This document shows, piece by piece, positions 35,212 through 53,886 of a DNA stretch of 64,000 nucleotides. The notes beneath the pieces are model-generated. The model did not search any database and was not told the DNA's origin. It saw nothing but the letters and a program-made list of their open reading frames with translations. The position numbers and the translations under genes were made by a program. The first letter of the stretch is position 1; each line of letters starts with the position of its first letter. The stretch is from a phage: NCBI GenBank assembly GCA_029944565.1, contig GCA_029944565.1_4115.1; one strand, written 5' to 3'.

Positions 35212-35402
35212 TAACATTTTATTCGTAATACCCCTTTATCGAAGTCGCTAAGGTTACCCGCCCTTTAGCCCCCTACGCATTTTGCCATAGTCCAATCCCT
35301 TTTATTTCAAAAAAGTCAAGGGATTACCTATGCATTTTTTTAACGCATAATTTTAAAAACGCCTTGACTTTTTTCTGAATCAGTACTAGATCCCTTTACG
35401 CA
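35212..35402. promoter_or_regulatory. repeat-rich upstream region of the family B array
   Basis: four ACGCAT-type repeats (ctacgcatttt, ctatgcatttt, aacgcataatttt, ttacgcattaat), inverted repeat TATGC-N11-GCATA, 8-bp stem aatccctt/aagggatt. Confidence 0.4.
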
Positions 35403-35612
35403 TTAATCCTTCGTTACGCTAACGATTATCTGTGTATCCCCGTAGTCCTGCCATACTTCCACGCCATCGGTCGCCCTGGTTAGTCGTGCTGTCATCTGCT
35501 TAATGGTCTTAGGCTTTAGTGGAACCTGTTGCAGTACTGTACGCATAGCATCATTGACGTTATCATGTACGCCTGCAATAGTGCCTAGGACGCTGTATAC
35601 TGTATAGAACAT
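35403..35612 (-). CDS. hypothetical protein
   Basis: 69-aa ORF; SD aggag 8 nt upstream. Confidence 0.55.
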   Translation of the reverse strand: MFYTVYSVLGTIAGVHDNVNDAMRTVLQQVPLKPKTIKQMTARLTRATDGVEVWQDYGDTQIIVSVTKD

Positions 35613-35624
35613 ATGTATGTACTC

Positions 35625-35657
35625 CTGATATAGTTAAGGCCGCTACAAGGCGGCCTA
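35625..35657 (-). terminator. candidate terminator hairpin
   Basis: ggccgc-tacaag-gcggcc stem-loop followed by U-rich tract on minus strand. Confidence 0.35.
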
Positions 35658-35680
35658 TGATGTTTGGTGATGTGTAACGC

Positions 35681-36082
35681 TTACAGTCCTAAGATAGTGC
35701 GTGCTTCGTTACGTTCCGTACACAGCTGCATGATGTGAGCAAGTAAGTCCTTGCTAATGTATCCGGTGTTCATAGCTTCACGAATAGATACATCATAAGC
35801 ACCGAACCCCGTGCGAACGATACGCACATCATTCAGGTTAGTATTATAGATACCGCCGAGATCAACGGCTTCGAATACTACATCAACAGAATATTCATTG
35901 TTGCCATCGTGGAAGTTTTCCAGTGCAATAGTATTGGATACCGCCCAACGTTTGCAGTTTCCAATGATGCGGCACTGTTCCGGTTGGATAGTACCATTAC
36001 TTACAGCGTACTCCAGTGCATCTTTACCAAAAGTCCGAGCCAGTACTAAAACGTCAGCGAAGGAATTGATTGAGAAGGTCAT
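35681..36082 (-). CDS. hypothetical protein
   Basis: start MTFSINSF with SD aaggag; track ORF extended through leader hairpin. Confidence 0.6.
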   Translation of the reverse strand: MTFSINSFADVLVLARTFGKDALEYAVSNGTIQPEQCRIIGNCKRWAVSNTIALENFHDGNNEYSVDVVFEAVDLGGIYNTNLNDVRIVRTGFGAYDVSIREAMNTGYISKDLLAHIMQLCTERNEARTILGL

Positions 36083-36103
36083 GATAAAACTCCTTAATTT
36101 AGG

Positions 36104-36165
36104 AGGGAGAACCATTTCCCCCTCTCTATGTAAAACATTATACTTGATTCTAAGTACTATGCAAG
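36104..36165 (-). promoter_or_regulatory. early promoter (TTGCAT-16-TATAAT) plus 5' leader hairpin
   Basis: plus-strand cattatac at 36136-36143 and atgcaa at 36159-36164; GC hairpin gggagaaccatttccccctc between TSS and SD. Confidence 0.65.
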
Positions 36166-36171
36166 TACTTT

Positions 36172-36504
36172 TTACATTTTAATACCTGGATTCAGGTAGC
36201 GGTGAGATCCATATTCTGGATCGGTTTCGGTCCAGTACTGTAAATCGATAGTACCTTTCGCGTTAATCTTGTCTACCAGCTTATTCATCTTAGCGTATAC
36301 TACGTCAGCATCGATGCGTTTAAAGCCAGTAGCTTTAGTGAAGTAGTAGTGATTTGCTTCACTATCATTAAGGATATACCGAGCACCGTTTGCAGTCTGT
36401 GCGATAATGATTGAGTATTCTACTTCCCGATCCAGACCGTCGATGAATACAGATGAAACATTGGTACGGATGAAAGCTTTAACGATAGCGATTGAAGTAC
36501 TCAT
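36172..36504 (-). CDS. hypothetical protein
   Basis: 110-aa ORF; SD aggag. Confidence 0.6.
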   Translation of the reverse strand: MSTSIAIVKAFIRTNVSSVFIDGLDREVEYSIIIAQTANGARYILNDSEANHYYFTKATGFKRIDADVVYAKMNKLVDKINAKGTIDLQYWTETDPEYGSHRYLNPGIKM

Positions 36505-36557
36505 TTTGAATCTCCTAACTTTGTGGGCCGTCGCACCATTGCCGCCCTACGAGATAC

Positions 36558-36586
36558 ATTATCGCAGTACTGATATACTTTGTCAA
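36558..36586 (-). promoter_or_regulatory. early promoter (TTGACA-17-GATAAT)
   Basis: hexamers on minus strand upstream of 36172..36504. Confidence 0.6.
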
Positions 36587-36612
36587 TACTTTTTTTATTA
36601 ATAGTTTTAGTT

Positions 36613-36620
36613 CCACCAGC
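36613..36620. other. Chi octamer (CCACCAGC, complement of GCTGGTGG)
   Basis: exact 8-mer in intergenic DNA. Confidence 0.5.
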
Positions 36621-36652
36621 AGATAGTTACTCACCGTTATTAACTATATATT

Positions 36653-36732
36653 TTAGATACACCTATGCACCCTGTGGGCTAGTTTTTGTCTATGCGTATA
36701 TAGTACTAAAGGAGCGGACCGAAGTCAACTCC
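36653..36732 (-). promoter_or_regulatory. conserved intergenic element, copy 1 (promoter TTGACT-17-TACTAT inside UUCG hairpin, then conserved core)
   Basis: core ...tgcaccctgtgggct... at 36653-36681; hairpin ggagcggac-cgaa-gtcaactcc at 36711-36732. Confidence 0.5.
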
Positions 36733-36751
36733 TTTTTTTATTCTTTTTTTG

Positions 36752-36952
36752 TTAGATGATTCTCCAATCATCAACGATCATGGTAAGATACCGAACCAGT
36801 GATTCGAGTGATTCGTGTTCTCGATAGTCTGCCGCTCCACCAGCGGTACAAGTACAGCCGATTAAGCCGTTTTGTAGTTCCTGGATCTTTACGTCGATCT
36901 GGTTGGCTTTAGCTTCTTTCAGTACTTCAACCAGGGCGATAGCGATAGACAT
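36752..36952 (-). CDS. hypothetical protein
   Basis: 66-aa ORF; SD ggag. Confidence 0.55.
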   Translation of the reverse strand: MSIAIALVEVLKEAKANQIDVKIQELQNGLIGCTCTAGGAADYREHESLESLVRYLTMIVDDWRII

Positions 36953-36974
36953 AATGTTTTACTCCAAACTATTG

Positions 36975-37035
36975 GCGGGAGAACTATTCCCCCGCTCTAT
37001 GTAAAACATTATACATTACTGGTTAGTACTGTCAA
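36975..37035 (-). promoter_or_regulatory. early promoter (TTGACA-16-TATAAT) plus leader hairpin
   Basis: perfect hexamers; hairpin gcgggagaactattcccccgc. Confidence 0.7.
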
Positions 37036-37041
37036 ATAGTT

Positions 37042-37299
37042 TTATGAAATATCTTCGATGTAGTCGGCCCATTTCATTTTTTCAGTACTGTCAATGGCTA
37101 CCGGATTATTTGGATCAAACCATTCACCATTCCCGCAATACATACCCACGCCAGCGGTAGTATATCCATCCTGGGCCGTATTCCATGACATTGCACGATA
37201 GATATGGCCTTTAATTGGTGTTAGTACTGGTAACGTTTTATGGTCTTCTACGTAGGCCATAGCTTGAGGATTTACCCGATATTGTGTGAACTGTTCCAT
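37042..37299 (-). CDS. hypothetical protein
   Basis: 85-aa ORF. Confidence 0.55.
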   Translation of the reverse strand: MEQFTQYRVNPQAMAYVEDHKTLPVLTPIKGHIYRAMSWNTAQDGYTTAGVGMYCGNGEWFDPNNPVAIDSTEKMKWADYIEDIS

Positions 37300-37327
37300 T
37301 ATGTTTCCCCTTGTAGTTAGTAAAGTT

Positions 37328-37356
37328 ATTACATCAGTACTATCAAGCTATGTCAA
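37328..37356 (-). promoter_or_regulatory. early promoter (TTGACA-17-TGTAAT)
   Basis: hexamers on minus strand. Confidence 0.45.
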
Positions 37357-37375
37357 TAGTACTGAAATAAAACTT

Positions 37376-37600
37376 TTAGATTAGATTATTGATGCCGTTG
37401 ATGGTAGACTCGCTTTCTTCTTTCTCCCATTGGCGGTAGTACTTCCATGCTTCATGATATGTGGCGATTAGTTCATCTTTTTGATCCTGAGTACATGCCA
37501 GTACTGAATCACGGTGAGCGGTGTTATAGATAGAATCGAATGATTTCTTCTCTTCTGCCAGGTTAGCTACTTCCCGCATCAGTTCATCAAAGTTAGCCAT
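37376..37600 (-). CDS. hypothetical protein
   Basis: 74-aa ORF; SD aaggag. Confidence 0.6.
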   Translation of the reverse strand: MANFDELMREVANLAEEKKSFDSIYNTAHRDSVLACTQDQKDELIATYHEAWKYYRQWEKEESESTINGINNLI

Positions 37601-37618
37601 TTTATTACTCCTTTTAGT

Positions 37619-37675
37619 GGGGGAGGATATCTCCCCCTATGCAAAACATTATACTTTGTTTTAGTTATTATGCAA
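37619..37675 (-). promoter_or_regulatory. early promoter (TTGCAT-16-TATAAT) plus leader hairpin
   Basis: hairpin gggggag-gatat-ctccccc. Confidence 0.65.
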
Positions 37676-37931
37676 GTACTTTTTTCATATAAAGATTATA
37701 TTCTACACCGCCGTAACCTTCTACGATGATATGTTTTGCGTTATCACGTTTGCACATAGTGAAACCGTTGTTGATGTGTTCTGCATTTTCCAGGGCGACA
37801 TCACCGATAGCGGCACATACGGCACTAATAACAGTATTCCGCAAAGTACTGGTATCATTAGCGGTCATAGTAGTTTGCAGTACTACGTTGTCGTATACGT
37901 GTGCATTGATAGTGATTTCGATAGTGTTCAT
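37668..37931 (-). CDS. hypothetical protein
   Basis: 87-aa ORF; SD aggag. Confidence 0.6.
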   Translation of the reverse strand: MNTIEITINAHVYDNVVLQTTMTANDTSTLRNTVISAVCAAIGDVALENAEHINNGFTMCKRDNAKHIIVEGYGGVEYNLYMKKVLA

Positions 37932-37949
37932 GGTGTATCTCCTGGACTG

Positions 37950-38010
37950 GCGGGAGAACTATTCCCCCGCTCTATGTAAAACATTATACGTTAATCTAAC
38001 TACAATGCAA
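37950..38010 (-). promoter_or_regulatory. early promoter (TTGCAT-16-TATAAT) plus leader hairpin
   Basis: same architecture as 36975..37035. Confidence 0.65.
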
Positions 38011-38017
38011 GTACTTT

Positions 38018-38209
38018 TTAAATTTTATTTCCGATATAGTCCGGTCTATTCTTTTCGGTCATACGCTTTGCTAATGTTTGCATATGGCTTATTGCGTTTA
38101 ATGTGTCTTCCTCCAGGGATGAATCAACATAATCAGGATCATTCTTCACCTTGCAATGATTATGATAGCGTAGTACTGCCAGTACTTTTTTAACTTCTTC
38201 TACTGTCAT
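38018..38209 (-). CDS. hypothetical protein
   Basis: 63-aa ORF, ATGA-coupled to upstream gene. Confidence 0.5.
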   Translation of the reverse strand: MTVEEVKKVLAVLRYHNHCKVKNDPDYVDSSLEEDTLNAISHMQTLAKRMTEKNRPDYIGNKI

Positions 38210-38478
38210 AATAAGTACCCCACTTCGTTAGCTTTCAGGTTAGTATCAATCATCAGTGGATTTTTGTAGTTCACAAAACGATTAGTTTTCTCGATAGCGA
38301 ATCCCATATAATCCAGCTTACTAACAGTACATTCATTCTTAAAAACTTCTTTCGCTGCATCGATGGCTGATTGCATGGATAACCGACCATCTAAATTAAT
38401 GTTTCCAAATGATCCACCAGCAGAAGTAGGATTACCGTTCATATCTTTAATGATCATAGTAGCGGAGTAGCTGGACAT
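38206..38478 (-). CDS. hypothetical protein
   Basis: 90-aa ORF. Confidence 0.6.
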   Translation of the reverse strand: MSSYSATMIIKDMNGNPTSAGGSFGNINLDGRLSMQSAIDAAKEVFKNECTVSKLDYMGFAIEKTNRFVNYKNPLMIDTNLKANEVGYLL

Positions 38479-38500
38479 AATTTTGTTTCCTTTTAGTATC

Positions 38501-38559
38501 GGGGAGAACTATTCTCCCCTTGATGTAAACTATTATACAGTACTGATATACTTTGTCAA
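38501..38559 (-). promoter_or_regulatory. early promoter (TTGACA-16-TATAAT) plus leader hairpin
   Basis: hairpin ggggagaa-ctat-tctcccc. Confidence 0.7.
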
Positions 38560-38565
38560 ATACTT

Positions 38566-38973
38566 TTATTCGCCCATATAGATTAAGTTATCATCGCCTA
38601 CATAGGGATCGCAAACGTTGATTTCTTCGCAGTACTTCGTGAATACATCGCCATAGTGACCTAAACCACGATCCCAAAAACCAGTTCCGTGACCTTCGCG
38701 GGTAAGGAACAGATCATGACCAGCTTGCTCATAACCGTAATCAATAAACATACCGCGAACTACTTCCAGATCATTACCGTGTTTCTCAATGAAGCGAGAA
38801 CATGCAATCACCGCCGCTTGACGTGCTTCATCAGATAACTCATAATCTTCCAGGTAATCGCCGTTATCATTATGTACAGTACTGAATTGCATAGCTTCAA
38901 TGTAAGCTACAACCATTGCAGCATGATTTTTATCGTTAGTGATGTTCCGAGCGAGATTAGTAGTAGTAGACAT
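38566..38973 (-). CDS. hypothetical protein
   Basis: 135-aa ORF. Confidence 0.6.
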   Translation of the reverse strand: MSTTTNLARNITNDKNHAAMVVAYIEAMQFSTVHNDNGDYLEDYELSDEARQAAVIACSRFIEKHGNDLEVVRGMFIDYGYEQAGHDLFLTREGHGTGFWDRGLGHYGDVFTKYCEEINVCDPYVGDDNLIYMGE

Positions 38974-38994
38974 GATTTTATTCCTTATTGTATT

Positions 38995-39053
38995 GGGGAG
39001 AACTATTCTCCCCTTGATGTAAACTATTATACAGTACTGATATACTTTGTCAA
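38995..39053 (-). promoter_or_regulatory. early promoter (TTGACA-16-TATAAT) plus leader hairpin
   Basis: near-identical copy of 38501..38559. Confidence 0.7.
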
Positions 39054-39056
39054 TAC

Positions 39057-39278
39057 TTAATTACGTTTAAAATGATATGTGCCTTTATCATCCTGTACGC
39101 CCCACACTGATTTACCATCAACACCAGTGAAACCGGATTGTAATTCAATATGGAAACCATTATTATCAACTACAAAAACTTTTTTATTTTCATCCCGATA
39201 ACATTGATATTCTGAATCAACATTAAAGGCCGCATCATTCAGAAGATTGGAAGCGTAAATGCAAGTCATTGTAGTCAT
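39057..39278 (-). CDS. hypothetical protein
   Basis: start MTTMTCIYAS; track ORF extended through leader hairpin. Confidence 0.55.
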   Translation of the reverse strand: MTTMTCIYASNLLNDAAFNVDSEYQCYRDENKKVFVVDNNGFHIELQSGFTGVDGKSVWGVQDDKGTYHFKRN

Positions 39279-39301
39279 GATTTTATTCCTTATTCTTTGA
39301 G

Positions 39302-39360
39302 GGAGAACCATTTCCCCCTCTCGATATAAAACATTATACTTGATTCTAAGTACAATGCAA
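39302..39360 (-). promoter_or_regulatory. early promoter (TTGCAT-16-TATAAT) plus leader hairpin
   Basis: hexamers and hairpin gggagaaccatttccccctc. Confidence 0.65.
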
Positions 39361-39402
39361 GTACTTTTTTAAAAATAGTTTTCAGTACTGAATACTTATA
39401 TA

Positions 39403-39487
39403 ATAGATACATTTATGCACCCTGTGGGTCAGTGAGCTATCTCTCAATGAATATATAATAGCAAAGGGACTGACCGAAGTCAATCCC
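39403..39487 (-). promoter_or_regulatory. conserved intergenic element, copy 2 (promoter TTGACT-17-TATTAT inside UUCG hairpin, then conserved core)
   Basis: core at 39403-39432; hairpin gggactgac-cgaa-gtcaatccc at 39465-39487. Confidence 0.5.
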
Positions 39488-39501
39488 TTTTTTAATCTTT
39501 T

Positions 39502-40086
39502 TTATCGTGTTATAGTTACGGCTTTTACATCCCGCTTTTTATAGTACTGATTCCAGATATTGCGGGTTAAACCGTAATCAAGTACTTTAATAAGGCCGTT
39601 GCGATCCTGGCCGATATTCTGTTTTCTGATATCTCTTATCGTTAGTGTTGACAGTGTATCATCAACGTGTTGTAGTGCATCAGCAAAGCGGTGCTGGCGT
39701 TCAATTGCATTACGTTTAATATTGTACTTTAATTCGTTGCACGCGTTAACGTGCTTTACACTGCCTTTGCTTGCAGTACTCAACCGATCCATAACGATAA
39801 ACATATTATCAGGATCGCTTAAATGCATATGCACTTTAGCAAAGTACTGTTTCAATTGAGGGCGGTCATAGTCTAAAAAATTCCATACCTTACATTCAGT
39901 TTCATTTTGTTCTACACCCGCATCACAATTGGCGACCTTAATCACTAACCGATCATTTAAAGCGAAAACTATACGGGAAGATCCCGCCCCGATGATCTCC
40001 AGGCCAGCTAACCGACAAGCTGAAAGGATCTCTTTGTTGGTTTCCATTTCTGACAGTGTACGGATGAATTTAGTATAATTACGCAT
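39502..40086 (-). CDS. protein kinase-like protein (putative)
   Basis: glycine-rich loop IGAGSSRIVF then VIKV; catalytic-loop-like NIGQDRNGLIKVLDYG; start MRNYTKF with SD aaggag. Confidence 0.4.
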   Translation of the reverse strand: MRNYTKFIRTLSEMETNKEILSACRLAGLEIIGAGSSRIVFALNDRLVIKVANCDAGVEQNETECKVWNFLDYDRPQLKQYFAKVHMHLSDPDNMFIVMDRLSTASKGSVKHVNACNELKYNIKRNAIERQHRFADALQHVDDTLSTLTIRDIRKQNIGQDRNGLIKVLDYGLTRNIWNQYYKKRDVKAVTITR

Positions 40087-40114
40087 TGCATGTTCTCCTT
40101 GAGTTAATGAAACT

Positions 40115-40143
40115 ATATTACAGTACTTTACTATCAATTGCAA
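40115..40143 (-). promoter_or_regulatory. early promoter (TTGCAA-17-TAATAT)
   Basis: hexamers on minus strand. Confidence 0.5.
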
Positions 40144-40360
40144 CTACTTTTTTAACATTAACGGCGTGGATCACTTCCTTAGTGTTTTTAGTACTGAATA
40201 CTTTCGCCGCTCCTTGTTCGACCGTGATACGATAGCGACCATTAACATCAACCATATTAATAAAGTCCGGCGTGCTGAATGGTGTTGTTTTACATTTCAG
40301 TACTGTTAACAATTCCACCAGCGATGTAGTTTCTTTGATACGTTTTTCTAAAGTAATCAT
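40118..40360 (-). CDS. hypothetical protein
   Basis: 80-aa ORF. Confidence 0.55.
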   Translation of the reverse strand: MITLEKRIKETTSLVELLTVLKCKTTPFSTPDFINMVDVNGRYRITVEQGAAKVFSTKNTKEVIHAVNVKKVVAIDSKVL

Positions 40361-40389
40361 TTTGTTTTTCCCCGTGTTGGTATGTACAT

Positions 40390-40418
40390 ATAGTACTAAA
40401 ACATTTGAGTACTGTCAA
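40390..40418 (-). promoter_or_regulatory. early promoter (TTGACA-17-TACTAT)
   Basis: ~60-bp block duplicated at 40640-40694. Confidence 0.55.
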
Positions 40419-40637
40419 TTAGATAATTGCATATTTCTTTAAAGATAATGCGTCTTGGGTTGGCTGATACTCAATGCCGTTACCGTTATCTACTTTAACT
40501 AATAAACCTTTGTCAATTAGTTTTTTAATAGTCCTTTGGCCTTGTTGAAAATTGGTAAAATGTGAATCATTACGAAAGGTATAACCGTGCTTAACTGCTT
40601 CATCAATAGTTTTCTTTTCGATTTTAGATAATTTCAT
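40419..40637 (-). CDS. hypothetical protein
   Basis: start MKLSKIEKK; track ORF extended upstream. Confidence 0.55.
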   Translation of the reverse strand: MKLSKIEKKTIDEAVKHGYTFRNDSHFTNFQQGQRTIKKLIDKGLLVKVDNGNGIEYQPTQDALSLKKYAII

Positions 40638-40665
40638 TTTGTTTCTCCCGTGTTGGTATGTGTAC

Positions 40666-40694
40666 ATAATACTAAAACAATTGAGTACTGTCAA
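40666..40694 (-). promoter_or_regulatory. early promoter (TTGACA-17-TATTAT)
   Basis: duplicate of 40390..40418 block. Confidence 0.55.
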
Positions 40695-40945
40695 CGTGAT
40701 ATTAGTTTTATTTTCTTATTATATTGTTGGTGTTCATATAGGTTTATCTTTCCTGTGTTCTCAATTACTATTCTGTTGTTAGTGTCTACATCGATTACAC
40801 GCAGTTTTCCGTTGCTTAACTTCCTTGGTAATAGGTTACCATTAATAAACTCATTAGCAAGCTGTACGGCCTTTGTGATGATTCTCTGTGGTGCTTTATA
40901 GTGTACCCGCAAGATATTATCTTTAGATAGTTGTACCTTAATCAT
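40691..40945 (-). CDS. hypothetical protein
   Basis: 84-aa ORF. Confidence 0.55.
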   Translation of the reverse strand: MIKVQLSKDNILRVHYKAPQRIITKAVQLANEFINGNLLPRKLSNGKLRVIDVDTNNRIVIENTGKINLYEHQQYNKKIKLISR

Positions 40946-40959
40946 TTTAGTTTATCCTA

Positions 40960-40986
40960 TAAAAAAGGCGGGAACTGATCCCGCCG
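40960..40986 (-). terminator. rho-independent terminator
   Basis: hairpin ggcggga-actga-tcccgcc followed by UUUUUU on minus strand. Confidence 0.55.
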
Positions 40987-41007
40987 TGTTGTTAGTACTG
41001 CAAGTTA

Positions 41008-41403: not shown

Positions 41404-41447
41404 GGTATACATCCTATTAGTTGAGTTAGTACTACAAGTTAGAGTCT

Positions 41448-47779: not shown

Positions 47780-47784
47780 ATTAA

Positions 47785-48057
47785 TTAACCTTTTAAGTAC
47801 TGGCTTAAGTAGTCTTTTTGATCTTCGGTGATTGCAGTCATCTTCCCTAGTACTGGATTGATGATATAATCCCCTGTAACGTCCTGTAACGCATTCTCAG
47901 GCGGTTTAACGGCTGGGGTAGCCATAGCCATTGCCTGGACTTGTTCGACGCTGTAACGCTCATAAAGGCGGCATTCTTCCGGTGTTAACATAGCATCAGT
48001 ACGCTTCATCGGTTTAATGATGCTTTCGATCTCATTCAGTACTTGATTAACGTTCAT
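47785..48057 (-). CDS. hypothetical protein
   Basis: 90-aa ORF. Confidence 0.55.
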   Translation of the reverse strand: MNVNQVLNEIESIIKPMKRTDAMLTPEECRLYERYSVEQVQAMAMATPAVKPPENALQDVTGDYIINPVLGKMTAITEDQKDYLSQYLKG

Positions 48058-48108
48058 GGTATAATCCCCAATATAAGCGGCCTAAATCGACCGCTAACGA
48101 TGTTTTGA

Positions 48109-48378
48109 TTAATAGGTGTAAGGTTGACGCTCAAACAATGATTGTACGCTGTACGCCCCGCTAATGGGCTTCGCTGGCAAATCAATTTTATATTGTTCAC
48201 GCTTAAAGATAATAAAACGGCAATTGTTTTTAACATCAAAATTGATTGAACGTTCCAGGAGTTTTCCATCGTGCACAAATACAAGATAACCGCTTGGTAC
48301 TTGTTTTGTAGAACTGGTTGCAACCATAGACCGACGAACATGTGTACCTGCATCGATTAAAGTACTGATATTTTTCAT
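48109..48378 (-). CDS. hypothetical protein
   Basis: 89-aa ORF with SD gagga; preferred over overlapping ORF 48054..48353. Confidence 0.5.
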   Translation of the reverse strand: MKNISTLIDAGTHVRRSMVATSSTKQVPSGYLVFVHDGKLLERSINFDVKNNCRFIIFKREQYKIDLPAKPISGAYSVQSLFERQPYTY

Positions 48379-48458
48379 TTTACTATCCTCTTAAGTTGAT
48401 TTAATTTCTTTCCCCTATGCAGACACTGTATCAAAGTATCTGCATAAAGTAAAGCTAA

Positions 48459-48782
48459 TTAAAGATCTTTTTTACGTTTTACATCCTGTACAGTACAATG
48501 CAACGGGATAGACAAATCATTACACAAACGAGTAAGGGAGGTTTCAACAGTATCAAGCCCGTCTACTGATTCCTTTAAGAGATCAAACGCCGTTTGTTGA
48601 TATGCATCTTCATAGCCATAAGTAAATGATTCAACCGCCAGATCATTCAAACCGTTATCCAGTTCAACGCTTACATGACAAGAATGATAAGTATTGCCAT
48701 ATGAATCAGTCCAACGTTTACCGTCAACATTGATTGCATGGATTGCAGCCAGGGAAACGGTATTGATGATAGTTTTAGCCAT
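48459..48782 (-). CDS. hypothetical protein (paralog of 41499..41822)
   Basis: shared RWTDSYGNTYHSC, FTYGY, DVKRKKD. Confidence 0.6.
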   Translation of the reverse strand: MAKTIINTVSLAAIHAINVDGKRWTDSYGNTYHSCHVSVELDNGLNDLAVESFTYGYEDAYQQTAFDLLKESVDGLDTVETSLTRLCNDLSIPLHCTVQDVKRKKDL

Positions 48783-48825
48783 TTTAGTATTCCTTAAATT
48801 AATATGTGTCGTCTTGATAAAATCT

Positions 48826-48854
48826 ATTATGCCAGTACTATCAAACTATGTCAA
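48826..48854 (-). promoter_or_regulatory. early promoter (TTGACA-17-CATAAT)
   Basis: hexamers on minus strand. Confidence 0.55.
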
Positions 48855-48873
48855 TAGTACTGTGATAATATTT

Positions 48874-49086
48874 TTACTTACTTTCTTTCGCTGCTTTATA
48901 TGTTGCCACTGCCATAACCACATCAGCACGAACAAAGTTTTTAACCGTGTCACTGTAATAATTGATCGCATCATCTATATCTGCGAACGTCCGATACATA
49001 CCGCACCAAGATACTTTATAACCTTCTTTCACTTCTGCCAGTTTAACGATAGTCTTGTTAACTTTGATTTTAGTAATGATAGCCAT
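48874..49086 (-). CDS. hypothetical protein
   Basis: start MAIITKIKV; track ORF extended through leader. Confidence 0.55.
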   Translation of the reverse strand: MAIITKIKVNKTIVKLAEVKEGYKVSWCGMYRTFADIDDAINYYSDTVKNFVRADVVMAVATYKAAKESK

Positions 49087-49105
49087 TTTAGTTTCCTCAT
49101 TATCA

Positions 49106-49164
49106 GGGAGAACCATTTCTCCCCTTGATGTAATGTATTATACTTTATTCGATTTACTTTGCAA
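49106..49164 (-). promoter_or_regulatory. early promoter (TTGCAA-16-TATAAT) plus leader hairpin
   Basis: hairpin gggagaaccatttctcccc. Confidence 0.65.
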
Positions 49165-49173
49165 GTACTTTTT

Positions 49174-49401
49174 TTAATTTAATTCATCCAGGCAAAGGAT
49201 ACGCTCAACGCCCAAATCAGTTAAACTAATCGACGGCACTTGATAGGTTTCAATGTATGCTACACTTGCCCACTGACCGAACTCATTAACGGCCCAGGTA
49301 TTCATTGCATTTTGCAATTCCGCACCTGCCTTGTTAGTAATGACTGCAACTACTTGTTCGTTGCCAGTAGTACCAGATACGCGAGTAATGATAATAGCCA
49401 T
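49174..49401 (-). CDS. hypothetical protein
   Basis: start MAIIITRVSG. Confidence 0.55.
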   Translation of the reverse strand: MAIIITRVSGTTGNEQVVAVITNKAGAELQNAMNTWAVNEFGQWASVAYIETYQVPSISLTDLGVERILCLDELN

Positions 49402-49421
49402 TGTTTTGATTCCTTTGATTT

Positions 49422-49484
49422 GGAAGGAGAACCGTTTCCCCCTCTCGATGTAAAACATTATACGCTAATCTCTTAATCGTGCAA
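49422..49484 (-). promoter_or_regulatory. early promoter (TTGCAC-16-TATAAT) plus leader hairpin
   Basis: hexamers and hairpin ggagaaccgtttcccc. Confidence 0.6.
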
Positions 49485-49549
49485 GTACTTTTTATTACTT
49501 TTTGCAAAATACTTTAAACGCTCTCAATCGCATTCTAACGACCTTAACG

Positions 49550-49557
49550 CCACCAGC
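49550..49557. other. Chi octamer (CCACCAGC)
   Basis: exact 8-mer; partner in opposite orientation at 49612. Confidence 0.5.
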
Positions 49558-49611
49558 TAGGGCGATGTATCAGATAATCAGTTTAATGCGTTAGAATCGA
49601 TTCTAGGCGGT

Positions 49612-49619
49612 GCTGGTGG
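49612..49619. other. Chi octamer (GCTGGTGG)
   Basis: exact 8-mer. Confidence 0.5.
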
Positions 49620-49635
49620 ACTGGAATACTACAGA

Positions 49636-49666
49636 CACAAAAAAGCCCACTGTTTAAGGTGGGCTA
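49636..49666 (-). terminator. rho-independent terminator
   Basis: hairpin agcccac-tgtttaag-gtgggct followed by UUUUUUGUGU on minus strand. Confidence 0.65.
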
Positions 49667-49686
49667 GTGATTCAGTACTTTAATTG

Positions 49687-50169
49687 TTATGCTTCAACTT
49701 TGCGATGAGCTTCGATCCATTCCTCGCGAGTCATACCGCTTTCTTTGATAGCGTCCAGTACTACCGCAATGCAGTTACCGCGTACAGGAATCATATGTTC
49801 TTCCCCGTTATCAAGTACTACAGTAACACGTTCTTGAATCCATTTTTTAGGTTTAGATTCTGGCTTATCTTCACCATACTTAACCGCCAGGGCTTTATGT
49901 GCCATTTCTACAACTACTTCCAGATCCAATCCAGCCACCGCCGCCTGGATACTTTCGATTGTTGCTTGCAGTTCGGCTTCACGGGCTTTTTTCTGTTCTT
50001 CCAGTTCTGCTACCTTTTTGGCTTGCAGTTCTTTAGCTTCACTGTACGCAATGTTAAAATTGTTGCGTACTGCTTTCATGGTATCGTTATCCAGGTCAGC
50101 CAACAATTCAGCAGCAATAACAGTATCGTTTGAAATCAGTGCTTTCAGGAATGATTTTACATTAGCCAT
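49687..50169 (-). CDS. hypothetical protein with central coiled-coil-like segment
   Basis: start MANVKSFLKAL with SD gagga; Ala/Glu/Lys-rich heptad-like middle. Confidence 0.6.
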   Translation of the reverse strand: MANVKSFLKALISNDTVIAAELLADLDNDTMKAVRNNFNIAYSEAKELQAKKVAELEEQKKAREAELQATIESIQAAVAGLDLEVVVEMAHKALAVKYGEDKPESKPKKWIQERVTVVLDNGEEHMIPVRGNCIAVVLDAIKESGMTREEWIEAHRKVEA

Positions 50170-50292
50170 TTTATAAATCCTCAATTAAAGTTTAGTTTAC
50201 GTTTATTAGTGTATCAAAGTTTTATCGACGTGTCCAGTTTTTCGTTCGACTTACTGGCGGTCTACTTAGTGCTCCCCGTCTTGATGTAATAC

Positions 50293-50320
50293 ATTCTACG
50301 CCTTTTTGTGGTAATGTCAA
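50293..50320 (-). promoter_or_regulatory. promoter (TTGACA-16-TAGAAT) with ~110-nt leader
   Basis: leader starts ...catcaagacgg... like other conserved-core transcripts. Confidence 0.5.
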
Positions 50321-50369
50321 CTACTATTTTAAAACTATTTTTAAAGTATGCAGTACTACGATAATACAA

Positions 50370-50401
50370 AAACAAAAAAGCCCACTGTTTAAGGTGGGCT
50401 A
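50370..50401 (-). terminator. rho-independent terminator (identical copy of 49636..49666)
   Basis: same hairpin agcccactgtttaaggtgggct plus U-run. Confidence 0.65.
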
Positions 50402-50417
50402 GTGATTCAGTACTATA

Positions 50418-50717
50418 TTATAAACAGTTAATTACTCCGGTGTGCGTTACTTTCTCAGTATCCATAACCGTGACCGATCCACGCTTAGTACTTACATCGT
50501 AATAAATTGTCGTGCTACCTTTTTCGTCTTCTTCATGGAACGGGCCGCTTTTAAATGCTTCTGGCTGGATCTCTAAATCCTTTAAAACAATCTCGCCAGT
50601 ACTTTCATCTGTCATCGCAACAGTGCACTGAATGAATTTTTCACTACTTACATCTAACGACGCATTAACAGCGAAAGAGGAAACAGATAAAGCCAGGGCG
50701 ATGATTGCAATTTTCAT
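50418..50717 (-). CDS. secreted/periplasmic protein (predicted signal peptide)
   Basis: N-terminus MKIAIIALALSVSSFAVNA with AxA-type cleavage site. Confidence 0.55.
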   Translation of the reverse strand: MKIAIIALALSVSSFAVNASLDVSSEKFIQCTVAMTDESTGEIVLKDLEIQPEAFKSGPFHEEDEKGSTTIYYDVSTKRGSVTVMDTEKVTHTGVINCL

Positions 50718-50728
50718 TTGATTATCCT

Positions 50729-50796
50729 TAGTTACCAGGGGGAACCGCTCCCCCGTGCGATGTAAAATATTGTACAGTACTAAAAACTAATTGCAA
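50729..50796 (-). promoter_or_regulatory. early promoter (TTGCAA-16-TACAAT) plus leader hairpin
   Basis: hairpin ggggga-accgc-tccccc. Confidence 0.6.
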
Positions 50797-50801
50797 GTAC
50801 T

Positions 50802-51038
50802 TTATGATTTTTTATAAAACATTTCGGCAGTAATATTTTTACCCGTTGGTTGTACTTTATCCAGAATTTTTTGATGCCCTGGCCGTCCAAATGAATATGA
50901 TCCGTAAACCGTAAACCAGTAGTTACCCTCAGTGTTTACATGTACAGCACAATAGGGAACGCCCCGCGATTCATCACCAATAAAGTGTGATACCGTTCCC
51001 GTTACATTAGCAGACGTTGATTTGATTTGTTCAAGCAT
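50802..51038 (-). CDS. hypothetical protein
   Basis: 78-aa ORF. Confidence 0.55.
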   Translation of the reverse strand: MLEQIKSTSANVTGTVSHFIGDESRGVPYCAVHVNTEGNYWFTVYGSYSFGRPGHQKILDKVQPTGKNITAEMFYKKS

Positions 51039-51058
51039 TTTCTTATTCCTTAGTTACC

Positions 51059-51114
51059 AGGGGGAACCGCTCCCCCTATGCAAAACATTATACGCGTTTA
51101 AAAACTAATAGCAA
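51059..51114 (-). promoter_or_regulatory. early promoter (TTGCTA-16-TATAAT) plus leader hairpin
   Basis: duplicate of the 50729..50796 block. Confidence 0.6.
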
Positions 51115-51147
51115 GTATTTTAATAAAAAGTATTTGAAAAATAATTG

Positions 51148-51176
51148 TTGACAACTGCATCCAGTACTGGCATAAT
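51148..51176 (+). promoter_or_regulatory. plus-strand promoter (TTGACA-17-CATAAT)
   Basis: hexamers read on plus strand; drives conserved-core transcript. Confidence 0.55.
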
Positions 51177-51182
51177 TACTAC

Positions 51183-51275
51183 ATCAAGACGAAACAGTCA
51201 CTAACCCACCGGGTGCCGAGATCCGTCTATTAAATGATTCAGTACTTAACAATAAAGGGGATCAATCGATCCCCT
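51183..51275 (+). ncRNA. candidate small RNA carrying the conserved promoter-proximal core
   Basis: no ORF; GAC-gaaaca-GTC hairpin then ACTAACCCACCGGGTGC; ends at hairpin ggggatc-aatc-gatcccc. Confidence 0.35.
51248..51275 (-). terminator. candidate rho-independent terminator
   Basis: same hairpin read on minus strand is followed by UUUAUUGUU after stop of 51281..51502. Confidence 0.45.
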
Positions 51276-51280
51276 ATGTA

Positions 51281-51502
51281 TTACTTAGTAAGGTATAAAC
51301 AGAAGTCACCTTTATTTGCTACGCCGCCAGTGTAACGCGATGAATAGTTAGAAACGTCCTGGACTTCTGCTATTACCAGTGTATCATCATTCAATTCGTC
51401 GCAGAAGCAAACGGCTGGATCTTTTACGCCGATCTTGTCGGCATGTTCCCGCATAGATTTAACCAGTGCTTCCAGTTGAGAAAGAGTAGTGATATTAGCC
51501 AT
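51281..51502 (-). CDS. hypothetical protein
   Basis: start MANITTLSQ; track ORF extended through leader. Confidence 0.55.
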   Translation of the reverse strand: MANITTLSQLEALVKSMREHADKIGVKDPAVCFCDELNDDTLVIAEVQDVSNYSSRYTGGVANKGDFCLYLTK

Positions 51503-51521
51503 TGTATTTTCCTCATTACCA

Positions 51522-51580
51522 GGGAGAACCATTTCTCCCCTCTATGTAAACTATTATACAGTACTGAAAACTAATTGCAA
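51522..51580 (-). promoter_or_regulatory. early promoter (TTGCAA-16-TATAAT) plus leader hairpin
   Basis: hairpin gggagaaccatttctcccc. Confidence 0.65.
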
Positions 51581-51586
51581 GTACTT

Positions 51587-51775
51587 TTAATTAAATTCCA
51601 TAAAATCATTCTCAACGTGCACAACAATTTGATTGTTTTTAAAGTCCGCAGCGAACTCGATGCAATCATAAACCGCTTTTTGTGTTACAATGCTATGAGT
51701 ACCAATCGGATTAATAGGGGATTGAATTGTTTCAATCTCGTTCCCTTGCTCATTAACAATTAAAATATTAAACAT
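51587..51775 (-). CDS. hypothetical protein
   Basis: 62-aa ORF; SD aggag. Confidence 0.5.
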   Translation of the reverse strand: MFNILIVNEQGNEIETIQSPINPIGTHSIVTQKAVYDCIEFAADFKNNQIVVHVENDFMEFN

Positions 51776-51813
51776 CGCTGTTACTCCTGGGTAGTGTTAA
51801 CTCGATATAAAGT

Positions 51814-51841
51814 ATTATACGCCTTTATTGCTTAGTGTCCA
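51814..51841 (-). promoter_or_regulatory. early promoter (TGGACA-16-TATAAT)
   Basis: hexamers on minus strand. Confidence 0.5.
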
Positions 51842-52038
51842 GTACTTTTTAAAACATATTCATAAACACTACGCACATCATTGATCATCGCCTGGCGGTT
51901 AGCAGGTAACGCACCAGGATCGCCACTATCCCAGGCATTGATAAAACTCCCCAAATCATGAAAGATTTTATTCTGTAAGCCGATTAACTGCAATTCTTTT
52001 TCTTCAAGCTCTTTGATACGGTCAATTAAAAGACTCAT
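51832..52038 (-). CDS. hypothetical protein
   Basis: start MSLLIDRIKE with RBS ctgaggattatcta identical to next gene. Confidence 0.5.
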   Translation of the reverse strand: MSLLIDRIKELEEKELQLIGLQNKIFHDLGSFINAWDSGDPGALPANRQAMINDVRSVYEYVLKSTGH

Positions 52039-52055
52039 TAGATAATCCTCAGTAC

Positions 52056-52337
52056 TTAATTGTAAGATCCGCAACGGTTACAATAGTGCCCGTCTTCCTC
52101 GTCAACGAATTGACCGACGAAATTATCTACTTTCTCTTTGAGATTCTGATAATTGTTTTCAACTTCCTTTAGACGTTCCTGGTAGTATTCCAGGGCTTGC
52201 ACATACGCCGCCTCAGCCGTTTTCGCTCTTAAGGCTAAATTCATGCCACGCGTTTCATCGTACATCCAAAAGCCATCGGTGCACTCACTGATTGACAATG
52301 ATTTGGTTAACACTTTATAGTCAATTACTTTGCTCAT
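52056..52337 (-). CDS. hypothetical protein
   Basis: start MSKVIDYKV; C-terminal CNRCGSYN. Confidence 0.5.
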   Translation of the reverse strand: MSKVIDYKVLTKSLSISECTDGFWMYDETRGMNLALRAKTAEAAYVQALEYYQERLKEVENNYQNLKEKVDNFVGQFVDEEDGHYCNRCGSYN

Positions 52338-52393
52338 TAGATAATCCTCAGTAAAGGCGGGAACCACACCCGCCATTGATTCAGTACTGAATG

Positions 52394-52633
52394 TTACATT
52401 CCAACCATTGCAGCACGGATCGCCGTAGTGCTATACTTGAATCCGTCCGGTGTTGTAGTAGTACCGTTGGCTTTTAATCTGCGGTACATACATTGGGCCG
52501 CAATATCTTTAGTTTTACATTGTGCGATGCAACTTTGAGCAAGCCGATATAATGACTCACCGTTATTAATCCACAATGAAACATTCCAATGAGTTTTGTT
52601 TTTGTGCCCGTTGTAAGTTTTAGTAGTAGCCAT
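52394..52633 (-). CDS. hypothetical protein (paralog of 53077..53316)
   Basis: shared GHKNKTxWNVSLWINN and TPDGFKYSTTAIRAAMVGM. Confidence 0.6.
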   Translation of the reverse strand: MATTKTYNGHKNKTHWNVSLWINNGESLYRLAQSCIAQCKTKDIAAQCMYRRLKANGTTTTPDGFKYSTTAIRAAMVGM

Positions 52634-52655
52634 TTTTAAATCCTCGTTTAATTGA

Positions 52656-52717
52656 GCGGGAGAACCATTCCCCCGCCTCGATATAAAGTATTATACGCTT
52701 TTAAACTTAGTTTGCAA
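52656..52717 (-). promoter_or_regulatory. early promoter (TTGCAA-16-TATAAT) plus leader hairpin
   Basis: hairpin gcgggagaaccattcccccgc. Confidence 0.65.
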
Positions 52718-52724
52718 GTACTTT

Positions 52725-52991
52725 TTATTCAAGTACTGCGATCTTTTTAATACGGTACACGGTCACGCGGTTGCCCTTTCGGTCGAGCTTTATTTCTACC
52801 ACTCGACGCGATACACTATCAGGACTTTTCAACGCCGCTAACCAGTACTGTAATGATCTGGCGGTACTACGCTTTACAATGGCCCAACGTTTACCACGTT
52901 CCGATTGTACGCCCATATCTTTAAACGTTGCCCCGTCCTGGCGTGCGGCGATCCGAGCTTGTTCACGCGTCGCAAAATACTTAATATTCAT
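52725..52991 (-). CDS. hypothetical protein (paralog of 41008..41403)
   Basis: shared FATREQARIAAR and DRKGNRVTVY; start MNIKYFATRE. Confidence 0.6.
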   Translation of the reverse strand: MNIKYFATREQARIAARQDGATFKDMGVQSERGKRWAIVKRSTARSLQYWLAALKSPDSVSRRVVEIKLDRKGNRVTVYRIKKIAVLE

Positions 52992-53022
52992 GCTGTTGCC
53001 CTTATCGTTGGTGTATGAATAA

Positions 53023-53060
53023 AACACTATTATAAAGTACTATCGCAAAAAATGATAGTA
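53023..53060. promoter_or_regulatory. perfect palindrome AGTACTATC-N9-GATAGTACT next to a -10-like TATAAT
   Basis: 9-bp inverted arms upstream of 52725..52991; candidate operator. Confidence 0.35.
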
Positions 53061-53076
53061 CTTTAAATCTATTCTA

Positions 53077-53316
53077 TTACATTCCAACCATTGCAGCACG
53101 GATCGCCGTAGTACTGTACTTGAATCCGTCCGGCGTTTTATCTTGTCCAGTCTGTTCTAAAAATAGCATCATATGACGGGCCGCATCATTGCGATTAGTG
53201 TTAGCGGCAATAAAGTCCTGGGCCAACCGGTATAATGATTCATCGTTATTAATCCAAAGGCTTACATTCCATTGAGTTTTGTTTTTGTGACCTAAGAACA
53301 TTTTTGATTTAGCCAT
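53077..53316 (-). CDS. hypothetical protein (paralog of 52394..52633)
   Basis: identical C-terminal 19 aa. Confidence 0.6.
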   Translation of the reverse strand: MAKSKMFLGHKNKTQWNVSLWINNDESLYRLAQDFIAANTNRNDAARHMMLFLEQTGQDKTPDGFKYSTTAIRAAMVGM

Positions 53317-53337
53317 TTTTAAATCCTCTTAATTATA

Positions 53338-53396
53338 GTGGGGAACTATTCCCCACCTGATGTAAAACATTATACGCTTTTAAACTTAGTTTGCAA
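53338..53396 (-). promoter_or_regulatory. early promoter (TTGCAA-16-TATAAT) plus leader hairpin
   Basis: hairpin gtgggga-actat-tccccac. Confidence 0.65.
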
Positions 53397-53410
53397 GTAC
53401 TTTTTAAAAC

Positions 53411-53773
53411 TTATTCGTAAATCTTGCCACTGTCAGCCCATACCAGGAAACGAGGCATATTATCCCATGCATCTTGCTTTAAATTTAAACCGTGTAATAC
53501 TTCTGTACTTTCCATTCCTGGTACTGGTTTACTATACACCGCAAATAGTTCACCCATATACTGATAAGCCATCGTTAAATCACTGGCGATCATCTTATGG
53601 ATCATCGCATCAAGCATCACGGTAGCGGCGTATTGTTCACGCTTAAGCGGTAACATTGCAATAAGTTCCCGATAAGCTGAAATGTGAATTTTTACCGTTT
53701 CAGCCGGAAGACCTTTCATCTCTTCACGGAAGTTAACCAGGTTAGCAATAATTTTATTGATTTGAGTCGCCAT
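53411..53773 (-). CDS. hypothetical protein
   Basis: start MATQINKII; track ORF extended through leader. Confidence 0.6.
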   Translation of the reverse strand: MATQINKIIANLVNFREEMKGLPAETVKIHISAYRELIAMLPLKREQYAATVMLDAMIHKMIASDLTMAYQYMGELFAVYSKPVPGMESTEVLHGLNLKQDAWDNMPRFLVWADSGKIYE

Positions 53774-53797
53774 CGTTTTCATCTCTCTTACAGTGTA

Positions 53798-53856
53798 GCG
53801 GGAAGTGTTCCCGCTCTCGATGTAAAACATTATACGCTTTTAAACATAGTTTGCAA
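53798..53856 (-). promoter_or_regulatory. early promoter (TTGCAA-16-TATAAT) plus leader hairpin
   Basis: hairpin agcggga-agtgt-tcccgct. Confidence 0.65.
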
Positions 53857-53886
53857 GTACTTTCTACATGTACTTTTAAAATAGTT

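Follow-up and report, generated by a model that had tools for sequence, protein, structure and literature searches.

PeSL (promoter-early stem-loop) cassettes are known in the T4-like phages RB49/phi1, PST/T4 and nt-1/KVP40 (PMC2839356, PMC4122927), and both transcription termination by their stem-loop and the formation of mini-circles by inter-PeSL recombination are experimental features of these cassettes (PMC2839356). Here we analyze a stretch of 64,000 nucleotides of phage DNA (contig GCA_029944565.1_4115.1, termed the window), in which about 20 kb are tiled with units of similar design. Each unit brings a promoter to the ATG of a small gene, and many carry a GC-rich stem-loop in the leader of that gene. 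Between 38 and 46 kb the window shares 90–97% identity with Escherichia jumbo phages belonging to the 121Q/PBECO4/G17 group, which identifies the phage, at the level of its sequence, as an Asteriusvirus, i.e. a Rak2-like jumbo coliphage. Rak2-like phages are only distant relatives within the T4 superfamily (PMC5259590).

The units of the window share with PeSLs a near-consensus sigma70 early promoter (12 perfect and ~30 near-consensus ones here), a stable polyG-loop-polyC stem-loop (23 here), a Shine-Dalgarno sequence (SD) and ATG at the 3' end with many copies before small ORFans in plastic regions, and a location at indel or replacement joints between close relatives. They differ in that the PeSL stem-loop precedes the promoter, lies within it or overlaps it, whereas here it always begins 11–14 nt past the -10, and in that the PeSL stem-loop has been read, and partly tested, as a terminator, whereas here it belongs to the gene's own leader and is not followed by a U-tract. 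A further difference is the setting: the host of the cassettes is a Rak2-like jumbo phage whose direct terminal repeat (DTR) they fill, and they are common to Vequintavirinae and Justusliebigvirus. Judged by sequence, the cassettes are a PeSL variant with the stem-loop in the gene's own leader.

Other described systems resemble the units in part. The T7 A1 and A3 promoters are also strong early promoters for the host RNA polymerase (RNAP) at a genome end, with a start at the eighth nucleotide after the -10; in T7, however, three such promoters precede a single long operon that RNase III processes, whereas here there is one promoter per gene, and the similarity to T7 shown here is that of the start region. 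The E. coli ompA 5' untranslated region and the T7 phi10 leader carry a sequence-independent hairpin near the 5' end followed by the ribosome-binding site (RBS), as do the units, but with at most 2–4 unpaired 5' nucleotides, compared with a predicted tail of mostly 5 nt here. Emory, Bouvet and Belasco are said to have concluded in 1992 that a stabilising stem-loop must lie within 2–4 nt of the 5' end. Intrinsic terminators are likewise GC-rich intergenic hairpins beside promoters, whereas the leader hairpins have no T-tract behind them and follow the start site instead of preceding it. Finally, lambda nut boxB and HK022 put provide an RNA hairpin soon after an early promoter, but boxA, a conserved pentaloop and the two-stem put fold are all absent from the units, and there are ~23 diverse copies instead of 2. 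The papers on rV5 (PMC3606486), CBB (PMC5259590) and PA5oct (PMC7318152) list sigma70-type promoters and do not describe leader hairpins, and the GenBank annotation of G17 marks true terminators only, leaving the leader hairpins unmarked.

Leader hairpins follow about half of the early promoters

Promoters were called from our own scans and from a separate tool scan of the window, the two being mutually independent. On the minus strand, from 35.2 to 55.2 kb, these scans revealed ~43 plausible sigma70-type promoters (Table 1). Twelve of them are perfect TTGACA-N16/17-TATAAT promoters, against ~0.01 expected by our own estimate from base composition, and the remainder have TTGCAA, TTGCAT or TTGACT as -35 element.

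A GC-rich hairpin with a stem of 7–10 bp and a loop of 3–5 nt (TAG, ATGG, ATGA, CGG and others) follows 23 of these promoters (~55%). Its 5' arm is G-rich, and always purine-rich, its 3' arm is C-rich, and its folding energy (dG) ranges from -9.6 to -15.0 kcal/mol, with a mean of -12.0 kcal/mol. The hairpin begins behind a conserved N5-(A/G)CAT-N1-5, at the distance from the -10 hexamer given above, and the ATG follows 17–23 nt past its end, with the SD between. The core GG(G/A)GAA...TTC(C/T)CC is conserved in the window phage, and the apex GAA-loop-TTC is conserved within Asteriusvirus.

A first-pass annotation of this DNA had counted about 40 near-consensus sigma70 promoters, in agreement with our scans, and had recognized that GC-rich hairpins follow them. 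These hairpins are real, but they accompany just over half of the promoters (23 of ~43) and not most of them; the spacing of ~7 nt from the -10 was too short; the quoted stem sequences are plus-strand readings of features that lie on the minus strand; and the region does not end at 53860, since its first promoter is found at 55146.

The association is specific to the region. Among promoters with at most two mismatches, the hairpin is present in 16 of 36 inside the region, whereas none of 30 promoter-like sites on the rest of the minus strand and none of 20 on the plus strand has one; shuffles of the downstream sequence give a mean of 0.07 hairpins expected. The 23 units were used to build a covariance model, a check that the first-pass annotation had put forward, and the window matches of this model (E<0.1) lay exclusively on the minus strand, from 36.1 to 53.8 kb. 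Rfam returned no match at the gathering score over the whole window and no tRNA was detected in it, so a known RNA family was rejected. A host origin was likewise rejected, because no match to the cassette or the hairpin was found in 5,426 E. coli genomes. An intrinsic terminator was rejected as well: a U-tract follows none of the 23 stems, with 1–3 T in the following 8 nt, compared with 5–7 T after the true terminators of the region.

Three GC hairpins on the minus strand have no promoter of their own (52356–52380, 40967–40985 and 35637–35656). They lie 18–24 nt before the ATGs at 52337, 40945 and 35612, the same spacing as that of the leader hairpins, and the one at 40967–40985 is a canonical terminator with T6.

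Selection on pairing

Covariation was analyzed in a loop-anchored, N-padded alignment of the 23 units, in which the outer pairs are paired by construction; a plain MAFFT alignment was dropped, as its columns did not follow the structural register and no more than 6 weak pairs emerged from it. In the loop-anchored alignment every cell pairs, and none of the 23 units lacks any of the inner seven pairs. Double-sided changes affect 6 of the 10 pairs, and the observed pairing scores were reached by none of 500 shuffles and by no slid register. When four other phages were added (52 units from five phages), compensatory changes were found in 9 of the 10 pairs. The orthologous units of 121Q and EC22.5-2 show compensated substitutions, A-to-G changes giving G.U, and paired one-base-pair deletions. 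In the Klebsiella phage Muenster (Alcyoneusvirus), unrelated and AU-richer stems, e.g. AGAGATTCCAgtacTGGAATCTCT, GGGAATGAAtaaTTCATTCCC and GGGGATACAtagTGTATCCCC, occupy the same position behind TATAAT-N5-ACAT, and the Erwinia phage Hallingskeid provides additional variants, indicating that structure and position are conserved but sequence is not.

Of the internal pairs that are not Watson-Crick, 5 are G.T in the sense strand and none is A.C (48 distinct hairpins, p=0.06), and the most variable pair is GC in 10, AU in 7, GU in 6 and AC in 0 of the 23 units. This wobble pattern, which comprises few independent events, favors an RNA structure in the sense transcript over a DNA palindrome. The best reading of these alignments is that the stem-loop is a selected, sequence-independent structure of the leader RNA, and the compensatory changes among paralogs and orthologs bear out the selected RNA structure that the first-pass annotation had postulated.

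Predicted position in the gene's own transcript

In the T7 RefSeq record, the A1 and A3 transcripts start at the eighth nucleotide after the -10 in a C-A context, and the units of the window have the same context, TATAAT-N5-AC-A. By analogy, their predicted start is the A at the eighth nucleotide after the -10, which would place the hairpin at about +6 to +25, behind an unpaired 5' tail with a mode of 5 nt and a range of 1–7. With the start taken from T7 A1/A3, 14 of the 23 units have a predicted tail of 5 nt and 5 units one of 1–4 nt, and the hairpin lies very close to the predicted 5' end of the transcript, where it had been claimed to lie. No start-site mapping for these phages was found in the literature searched. 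The first 10 transcribed nucleotides of units 49484, 42176 and 39360, ATCGAGAGGG, are identical to the start of the T7 A1 transcript, and other units begin with ATGAA, as does T7 A3. The leader of T7 A1 likewise forms a 5' stem-loop when folded (z=-4.2).

The leader hairpin is kept by several first promoters past canonical terminators (51114, 49484, 46656 and 39360). The promoter at 55146 also has one (~55073–55110, dG -13.5), which is unrelated in sequence, is conserved in 121Q and is not followed by an open reading frame (ORF). The presence of hairpins at these promoters suggests a role in the gene's own transcript.

The early-gene region and the terminal repeat

The promoter-tiled region maps onto the DTR of the phage. 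At the upper end, window position 55511 aligns with position 1 of the record of vB_Ec-M-J, a close relative, which is the start of an annotated 21,525-bp "Direct Terminal Repeats" feature. The lower boundary of ~35.2 kb is an extrapolation and not a direct alignment; the start of the G17 record maps near window 35.25 kb, and the GC content rises from 32% to 38% on entering the region at ~35 kb. At positions 1–35000 the ORFs overlap or are packed tightly, the GC content is ~32%, consensus promoters are few and leader hairpins are absent, and this change of gene style fits the extrapolated boundary. All genes from ~35.2 to 55.2 kb lie on the minus strand, and the GC skew changes sign near 56 kb. 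A DTR is likewise on record for Klebsiella phage Muenster. For PA5oct, a related jumbo phage, high early transcription of the DTR genes has been described, together with a dependence of infection on host RNAP (PMC7318152).

The products of the cassette-driven genes are small. Ten were tested, of which one had a Pfam match (a domain of unknown function), and their PHROG matches are families of unknown function, save for one weak "DNA ligase" match.

The stretch adjoining the DTR end, 53880–55511, is poor in ORFs and contains plus-strand promoters at 54137 and 54478, several hairpins, and two copies of a ~30-bp direct repeat (ctttctatataggagtactat.attcagtactg) at 53890–53980. It may encode non-coding RNAs (ncRNAs) or contain end-related signals; ncRNAs have been reported in the PA5oct DTR (PMC7318152).

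Homology between relatives often breaks within cassettes

In comparisons with G17 and EC22.5-2, 29 of 38 ends of homology blocks fall within cassettes, which cover 24% of the region (p ~1e-11). Both of these phages lack the acetyltransferase gene 44111–44467, and the promoter of unit 44524 is fused to the hairpin of unit 44107. In 121Q, a hairless cassette precedes the ortholog of the gene starting at 49086, compared with a hairpin cassette in the window; the opposite holds for the gene at 42455, and the ortholog of the gene at 44031 has a different hairpin type. A record of EC22.5-2 (OR845138.1, labeled "UNVERIFIED") matches the early region in both orientations, which suggests an inverted duplication or a mis-assembled terminal repeat in that record.

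Cassettes of the same design are present in Rak2-like phages of Klebsiella and Erwinia, in Vequintavirinae and in Justusliebigvirus, and the search for them brought up roughly 70 phage genomes. The Vequintavirinae phage A73 has the cassette together with homologous small early genes in eight segments of 74–86% identity, and Justusliebigvirus muut has the cassette and homologous early genes over 532 bp at 92%; an identical GGGGAGAAtagTTCTCCCC is among the cassettes common to the window, A73 and muut. An ORF-less unit at 42520–42632 (minus strand) is also conserved in A73 and muut, with 88–92% identity. It consists of TTGCAT-16-TATAAT followed by ~76 nt of self-folding sequence, ATCAGGACGGGG...CCCCGTT...CCCCTGAT, that reaches as far as the next promoter, and is a candidate for a small RNA made early.

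Proposed function and alternatives

We read the units as PeSL-like modular cassettes for early expression, in which the stem-loop is a structure-only RNA element serving stability or as a boundary, and we assign this reading as a whole a probability of about 0.55. Their identity as modular PeSL-type early-gene cassettes of ~80 bp that tile the Asteriusvirus DTR is very probable, whereas the assignment of the stem-loop as a stability or boundary element is a tentative proposal.

Each cassette consists, in order, of a near-consensus sigma70 promoter, an (A/G)C-A(+1)T start, the GC stem-loop, an A-rich spacer, the SD and the ATG, and stands before an individual small gene of unknown function. Host RNAP would fire from every cassette soon after infection. 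There are ~9 canonical terminators for ~50 genes, so the transcripts are expected to be nested and polycistronic. The stem-loop would act as RNA, through its structure and not its sequence: its own mRNA would gain a stable fold close to the 5' end, and in upstream transcripts that read through or are processed by RNase E it would bar 3'-exonucleases. It would neither terminate transcription nor mask the RBS. Separately, the conserved cassettes would offer homology for recombination, by which early genes and leaders may be deleted, inserted or swapped, both among members of the genus and in exchange with further large phages of enterobacteria.

Several points weigh against this reading. We infer the function of the stem-loop from sequence. 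The accessibility of the RBS, calculated as the predicted unpaired probability from the SD to +12, does not change when the hairpin is deleted (0.656 vs 0.653, not significant), and the idea that the hairpin insulates the RBS was rejected on this basis. About 45% of the promoters are hairless and orthologous genes tolerate either type of cassette, indicating that the hairpin is not essential for expression. The predicted tail of ~5 nt exceeds the 2–4 nt limit of ompA-type stabilizers. RNase E bypasses simple stem-loops when scanning (PMC9943677), and protection by blocking this scanning was therefore rejected. The count of G.U versus A.C pairs is small (5:0), and the significance of the shuffles is overstated because the units are related as paralogs or orthologs. 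Finally, breakpoints in cassettes are inseparable from breakpoints in intergenic DNA in general, as nearly all intergenic DNA here is cassette.

These points also bear on the two functions suggested by the first-pass annotation. Protection from 5'-end-dependent decay is weakened by the tail length and the RNase E bypass, such that the classic model of 5'-end protection appears weakly compatible with the predicted leaders. A binding site for a sequence-specific regulator is unlikely, given the several unrelated stems that occupy one and the same position in a single Klebsiella phage.

Among the alternatives, one that we regard as unlikely, yet worth stating, is that the leader stem-loop represents an undescribed class of cis-acting RNA that marks immediate-early leaders in several lineages of large enterobacterial phages. 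This class would span Asteriusvirus, Alcyoneusvirus, the Erwinia Rak2-likes, Vequintavirinae and Justusliebigvirus, spread on mobile promoter-leader cassettes, and would act via a specific host or phage pathway, e.g. by evading a host RNA-decay or defense step or by timed shut-off of early mRNA, instead of as a generic stabilizer.

It is rather improbable that the hairpin is an RNA tag bound by a phage or host protein that times translation or decay, or that modifies RNAP in the manner of nut or put. The fixed position relative to the start in many early transcripts and the apex conserved within Asteriusvirus would suit such a tag, and T4 has dedicated regulators of early mRNA, e.g. RegB (PMC3014915). 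However, stems and loops are diverse within one genome and between genera, there is no boxA/boxB-like motif and no Rfam match, and a given gene can stand behind either a hairpin or a hairless cassette.

A PeSL-style terminator or attenuator, by which the stem-loops would stop or damp upstream transcription and so prevent its pile-up downstream, is improbable as well. This is the function proposed for PeSLs, one RB49 stem-loop reducing lacZ expression about as much as rrnB T1 (PMC2839356), and similar hairpins without promoters stand before three ATGs of the region, of which the one at 40945 is a true terminator. The leader hairpins, unlike the real terminators of the region, have no U-tract; moreover, each lies downstream of its own start, where efficient termination would kill its own gene, and the hairpins persist right after canonical terminators, where nothing is left to stop.

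Still less support can be given to a co-transcriptional aid at strong promoters, in which a purine-rich start would ease escape and the nascent hairpin would block backtracking before a ribosome follows. The promoters are of consensus strength, several of their transcripts would begin like that of T7 A1 and others like that of A3, the T7 A1 leader has its own 5' stem-loop, and the 5' arm is purine-rich throughout; nevertheless, the argument is purely inferential, ten equally strong promoters are hairless, and the purine-rich arm may be an inheritance from a common ancestor.

The palindrome at +6 to +25 is very unlikely to be a double-stranded DNA operator that binds a dimeric repressor to shut early promoters. 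Its size and symmetry are operator-like (2 x 8 bp with a 3–4 bp spacer) and its core is conserved, but the half-sites change complementarily and never independently (GC 10, AT 7, GT 6, AC 0), stem length and spacer vary, and several unrelated palindromes share one position in a single Klebsiella phage. That the hairpin has no function and is a mere passenger of a promoter cassette spread by duplication can be dismissed almost entirely: many units are close paralogs, but paralogs and orthologs show compensatory substitutions and paired indels, and structure and position are conserved across genera where sequence is not.

Other promoters and repeated units

One family of hairless promoters (48826–48880, 45880–45935 and 37328–37385, with a variant at 41448–41500) has its -35 element inside a 12-bp inverted repeat, CAGTACTATTGA-N6-TTGATAGTACTG, the sequence of which is conserved among its members; this repeat looks like an operator. 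The palindrome AGTACT occurs 259 times in the whole window, compared with ~21 expected, and CAGTACTG occurs 54 times, compared with ~0.6 expected. AGTACT sites lie in non-coding as well as coding DNA; some stand in promoter spacers and some overlap -35 elements (AGTACTTGCAA).

A second repeated unit without an ORF, termed class-B, is present on the minus strand at 36640–36745, 39400–39495, 42670–42760 and 46700–46800, with related copies at 45040–45115 (minus strand) and at 51148–51235 and ~54340–54440 (plus strand). It contains a bidirectional terminator hairpin, AAAGGGATTGACTTCGGTCAGTCCCTTT, with a TTGACT -35 element in the stem and a TATTAT -10 element after the T-tract; ~20 nt past the -10 follow a conserved AGCCCACAGGGTGCA hairpin and TGTATCTA. 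The overlap of terminator and promoter matches that of promoter-coupled terminators (bioRxiv 10.64898/2026.08.19.745784), and the conserved downstream hairpin may be part of a small RNA.

Table 1 Early-gene region, promoter-to-ATG cassettes (units of ~80 bp, all on the minus strand) and further promoters of the window.
Feature	Position	Strand	Leader hairpin	ATG	Remarks
Early-gene region, approximately the DTR	35200..55511	-			Holds ~50 small minus-strand genes
First promoter of the region, TTGACA-16-TATAAT	55073..55146	-			~365 bp from the DTR end
Cassette, TTGCAA-16-TATAAT	53774..53856	-	53797-53815 AGCGGGAAcacTTCCCGCT	53773	
Cassette, TTGCAA-16-TATAAT	53317..53396	-	53337-53357 GGTGGGGAAtagTTCCCCACT	53316	
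Cassette, TTGCAA-16-TATAAT	52634..52717	-	52655-52677 GGCGGGGGAAtggTTCTCCCGCT	52633	2 G.U
Promoter, TGGACA-16-TATAAT	51814..51841	-	none		
Cassette, TTGCAA-16-TATAAT	51503..51580	-	51521-51540 GGGGAGAAatggTTCTCCCT	51502	
Cassette, TTGCTA-16-TATAAT	51039..51114	-	51059-51077 AGGGGGAGcggTTCCCCCT	51038	First promoter past terminator 51256-51275
Cassette, TTGCAA-16-TACAAT	50718..50796	-	50738-50754 GGGGGAGcggTTCCCCC	50717	
Promoter, TTGACA-16-TAGAAT	50293..50320	-	no clean hairpin		
Cassette, TTGCAC-16-TATAAT	49402..49484	-	49423-49444 GAGGGGGAAacggTTCTCCTTC	49401	Start ATCGAGAGGG; 2 G.U
Cassette, TTGCAA-16-TATAAT	49087..49164	-	49105-49124 GGGGAGAAatggTTCTCCCT	49086	
Promoter, TTGACA-17-CATAAT	48826..48854	-	none		Extended -10; -35 within inverted repeat CAGTACTATTGA-N6-TTGATAGTACTG
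Cassette, TTGCAA-16-TATAAT	47501..47579	-	47522-47541 AAGGGGAAaacgTTCCCCTT	47500	
Cassette, TTGCAA-16-TATAAT	47177..47254	-	47195-47214 GGGGAGAAatgaTTCTCCCC	47176	
Cassette, TTGCAA-16-TATAAT	46578..46656	-	46597-46615 AGGGGAAAcggTTTCCCCT	46577	
Cassette, TTGACA-16-TATAAT	46142..46221	-	46162-46181 GGGGAGAAatgaTTCTCCCC	46141	
Promoter	45880..45908	-	none		Same family as 48854
Perfect promoter, TTGACA-16-TATAAT	45611..45638	-	none		
Promoter, TTGATC-16-TATAAT	44972..44999	-	no GC hairpin		
Perfect promoter	44497..44524	-	none		22-nt leader; acetyltransferase gene 44111-44467
Cassette, TTGCAT-17-TATAAT	44032..44107	-	44050-44068 AGGGGAAacatcTTCCCCT	44031	
Cassette, TTGACA-16-TATAAT	43409..43485	-	43426-43445 GGGGAGAAatgaTTCTCCCC	43408	
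Perfect promoter	42489..42516	-	none		Ortholog gene in 121Q: hairpin cassette GTGGGGAAtagTTCCCCAC
Cassette, TTGACA-16-TATAAT	42094..42176	-	42117-42136 GAGGGGGAatggTTCCCCTC	42093	
Cassette, TTGACA-16-TATAAT	41823..41907	-	41846-41865 GAGGGGAAacggTTCCCCTC	41822	
Perfect promoter, TTGACA-17-TATAAT	41448..41476	-	none		
Promoter, TTGACA-17-TATTAT	40666..40694	-	none		21-nt leader
Promoter, TTGACA-17-TACTAT	40390..40418	-	none		22-nt leader
Cassette, TTGCAT-16-TATAAT	39279..39360	-	39299-39320 GAGGGGGAAatggTTCTCCCTC	39278	G.U
Cassette, TTGACA-16-TATAAT	38974..39053	-	38995-39013 GGGGAGAAtagTTCTCCCC	38973	
Cassette, TTGACA-16-TATAAT	38479..38559	-	38501-38519 GGGGAGAAtagTTCTCCCC	38478	
Cassette, TTGCAT-16-TATAAT	37932..38010	-	37950-37970 GCGGGGGAAtagTTCTCCCGC	37931	G.U
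Cassette, TTGCAT-16-TATAAT	37601..37675	-	37619-37637 GGGGGAGatatcCTCCCCC	37600	
Promoter, TTGACA-17-TGTAAT	37328..37356	-	none		Within inverted repeat
Cassette, TTGACA-16-TATAAT	36953..37035	-	36975-36995 GCGGGGGAAtagTTCTCCCGC	36952	G.U
Promoter, TTGACA-17-GATAAT	36558..36586	-	divergent imperfect GC structure		
Cassette, TTGCAT-16-TATAAT	36083..36164	-	36103-36124 GAGGGGGAAatggTTCTCCCTC	36082	G.U

Implications

Together, a consensus promoter, a start like that of T7 A1 and a leader hairpin conserved in structure only define a regulatory module that is testable, and the cassettes would be strong, compact, ready-made expression parts for E. coli. A hairpin in the gene's own transcript does not fit the explanation of PeSLs as terminators and calls for a post- or co-transcriptional role. 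Jumbo and large coliphages have tens of kilobases of small early genes of unknown function, the expression and exchange of which are poorly described. The cassettes characterized here would extend the idea of mobile PeSL cassettes from T4-like phages to Rak2-like jumbo phages and to rV5- and phi92-like phages.

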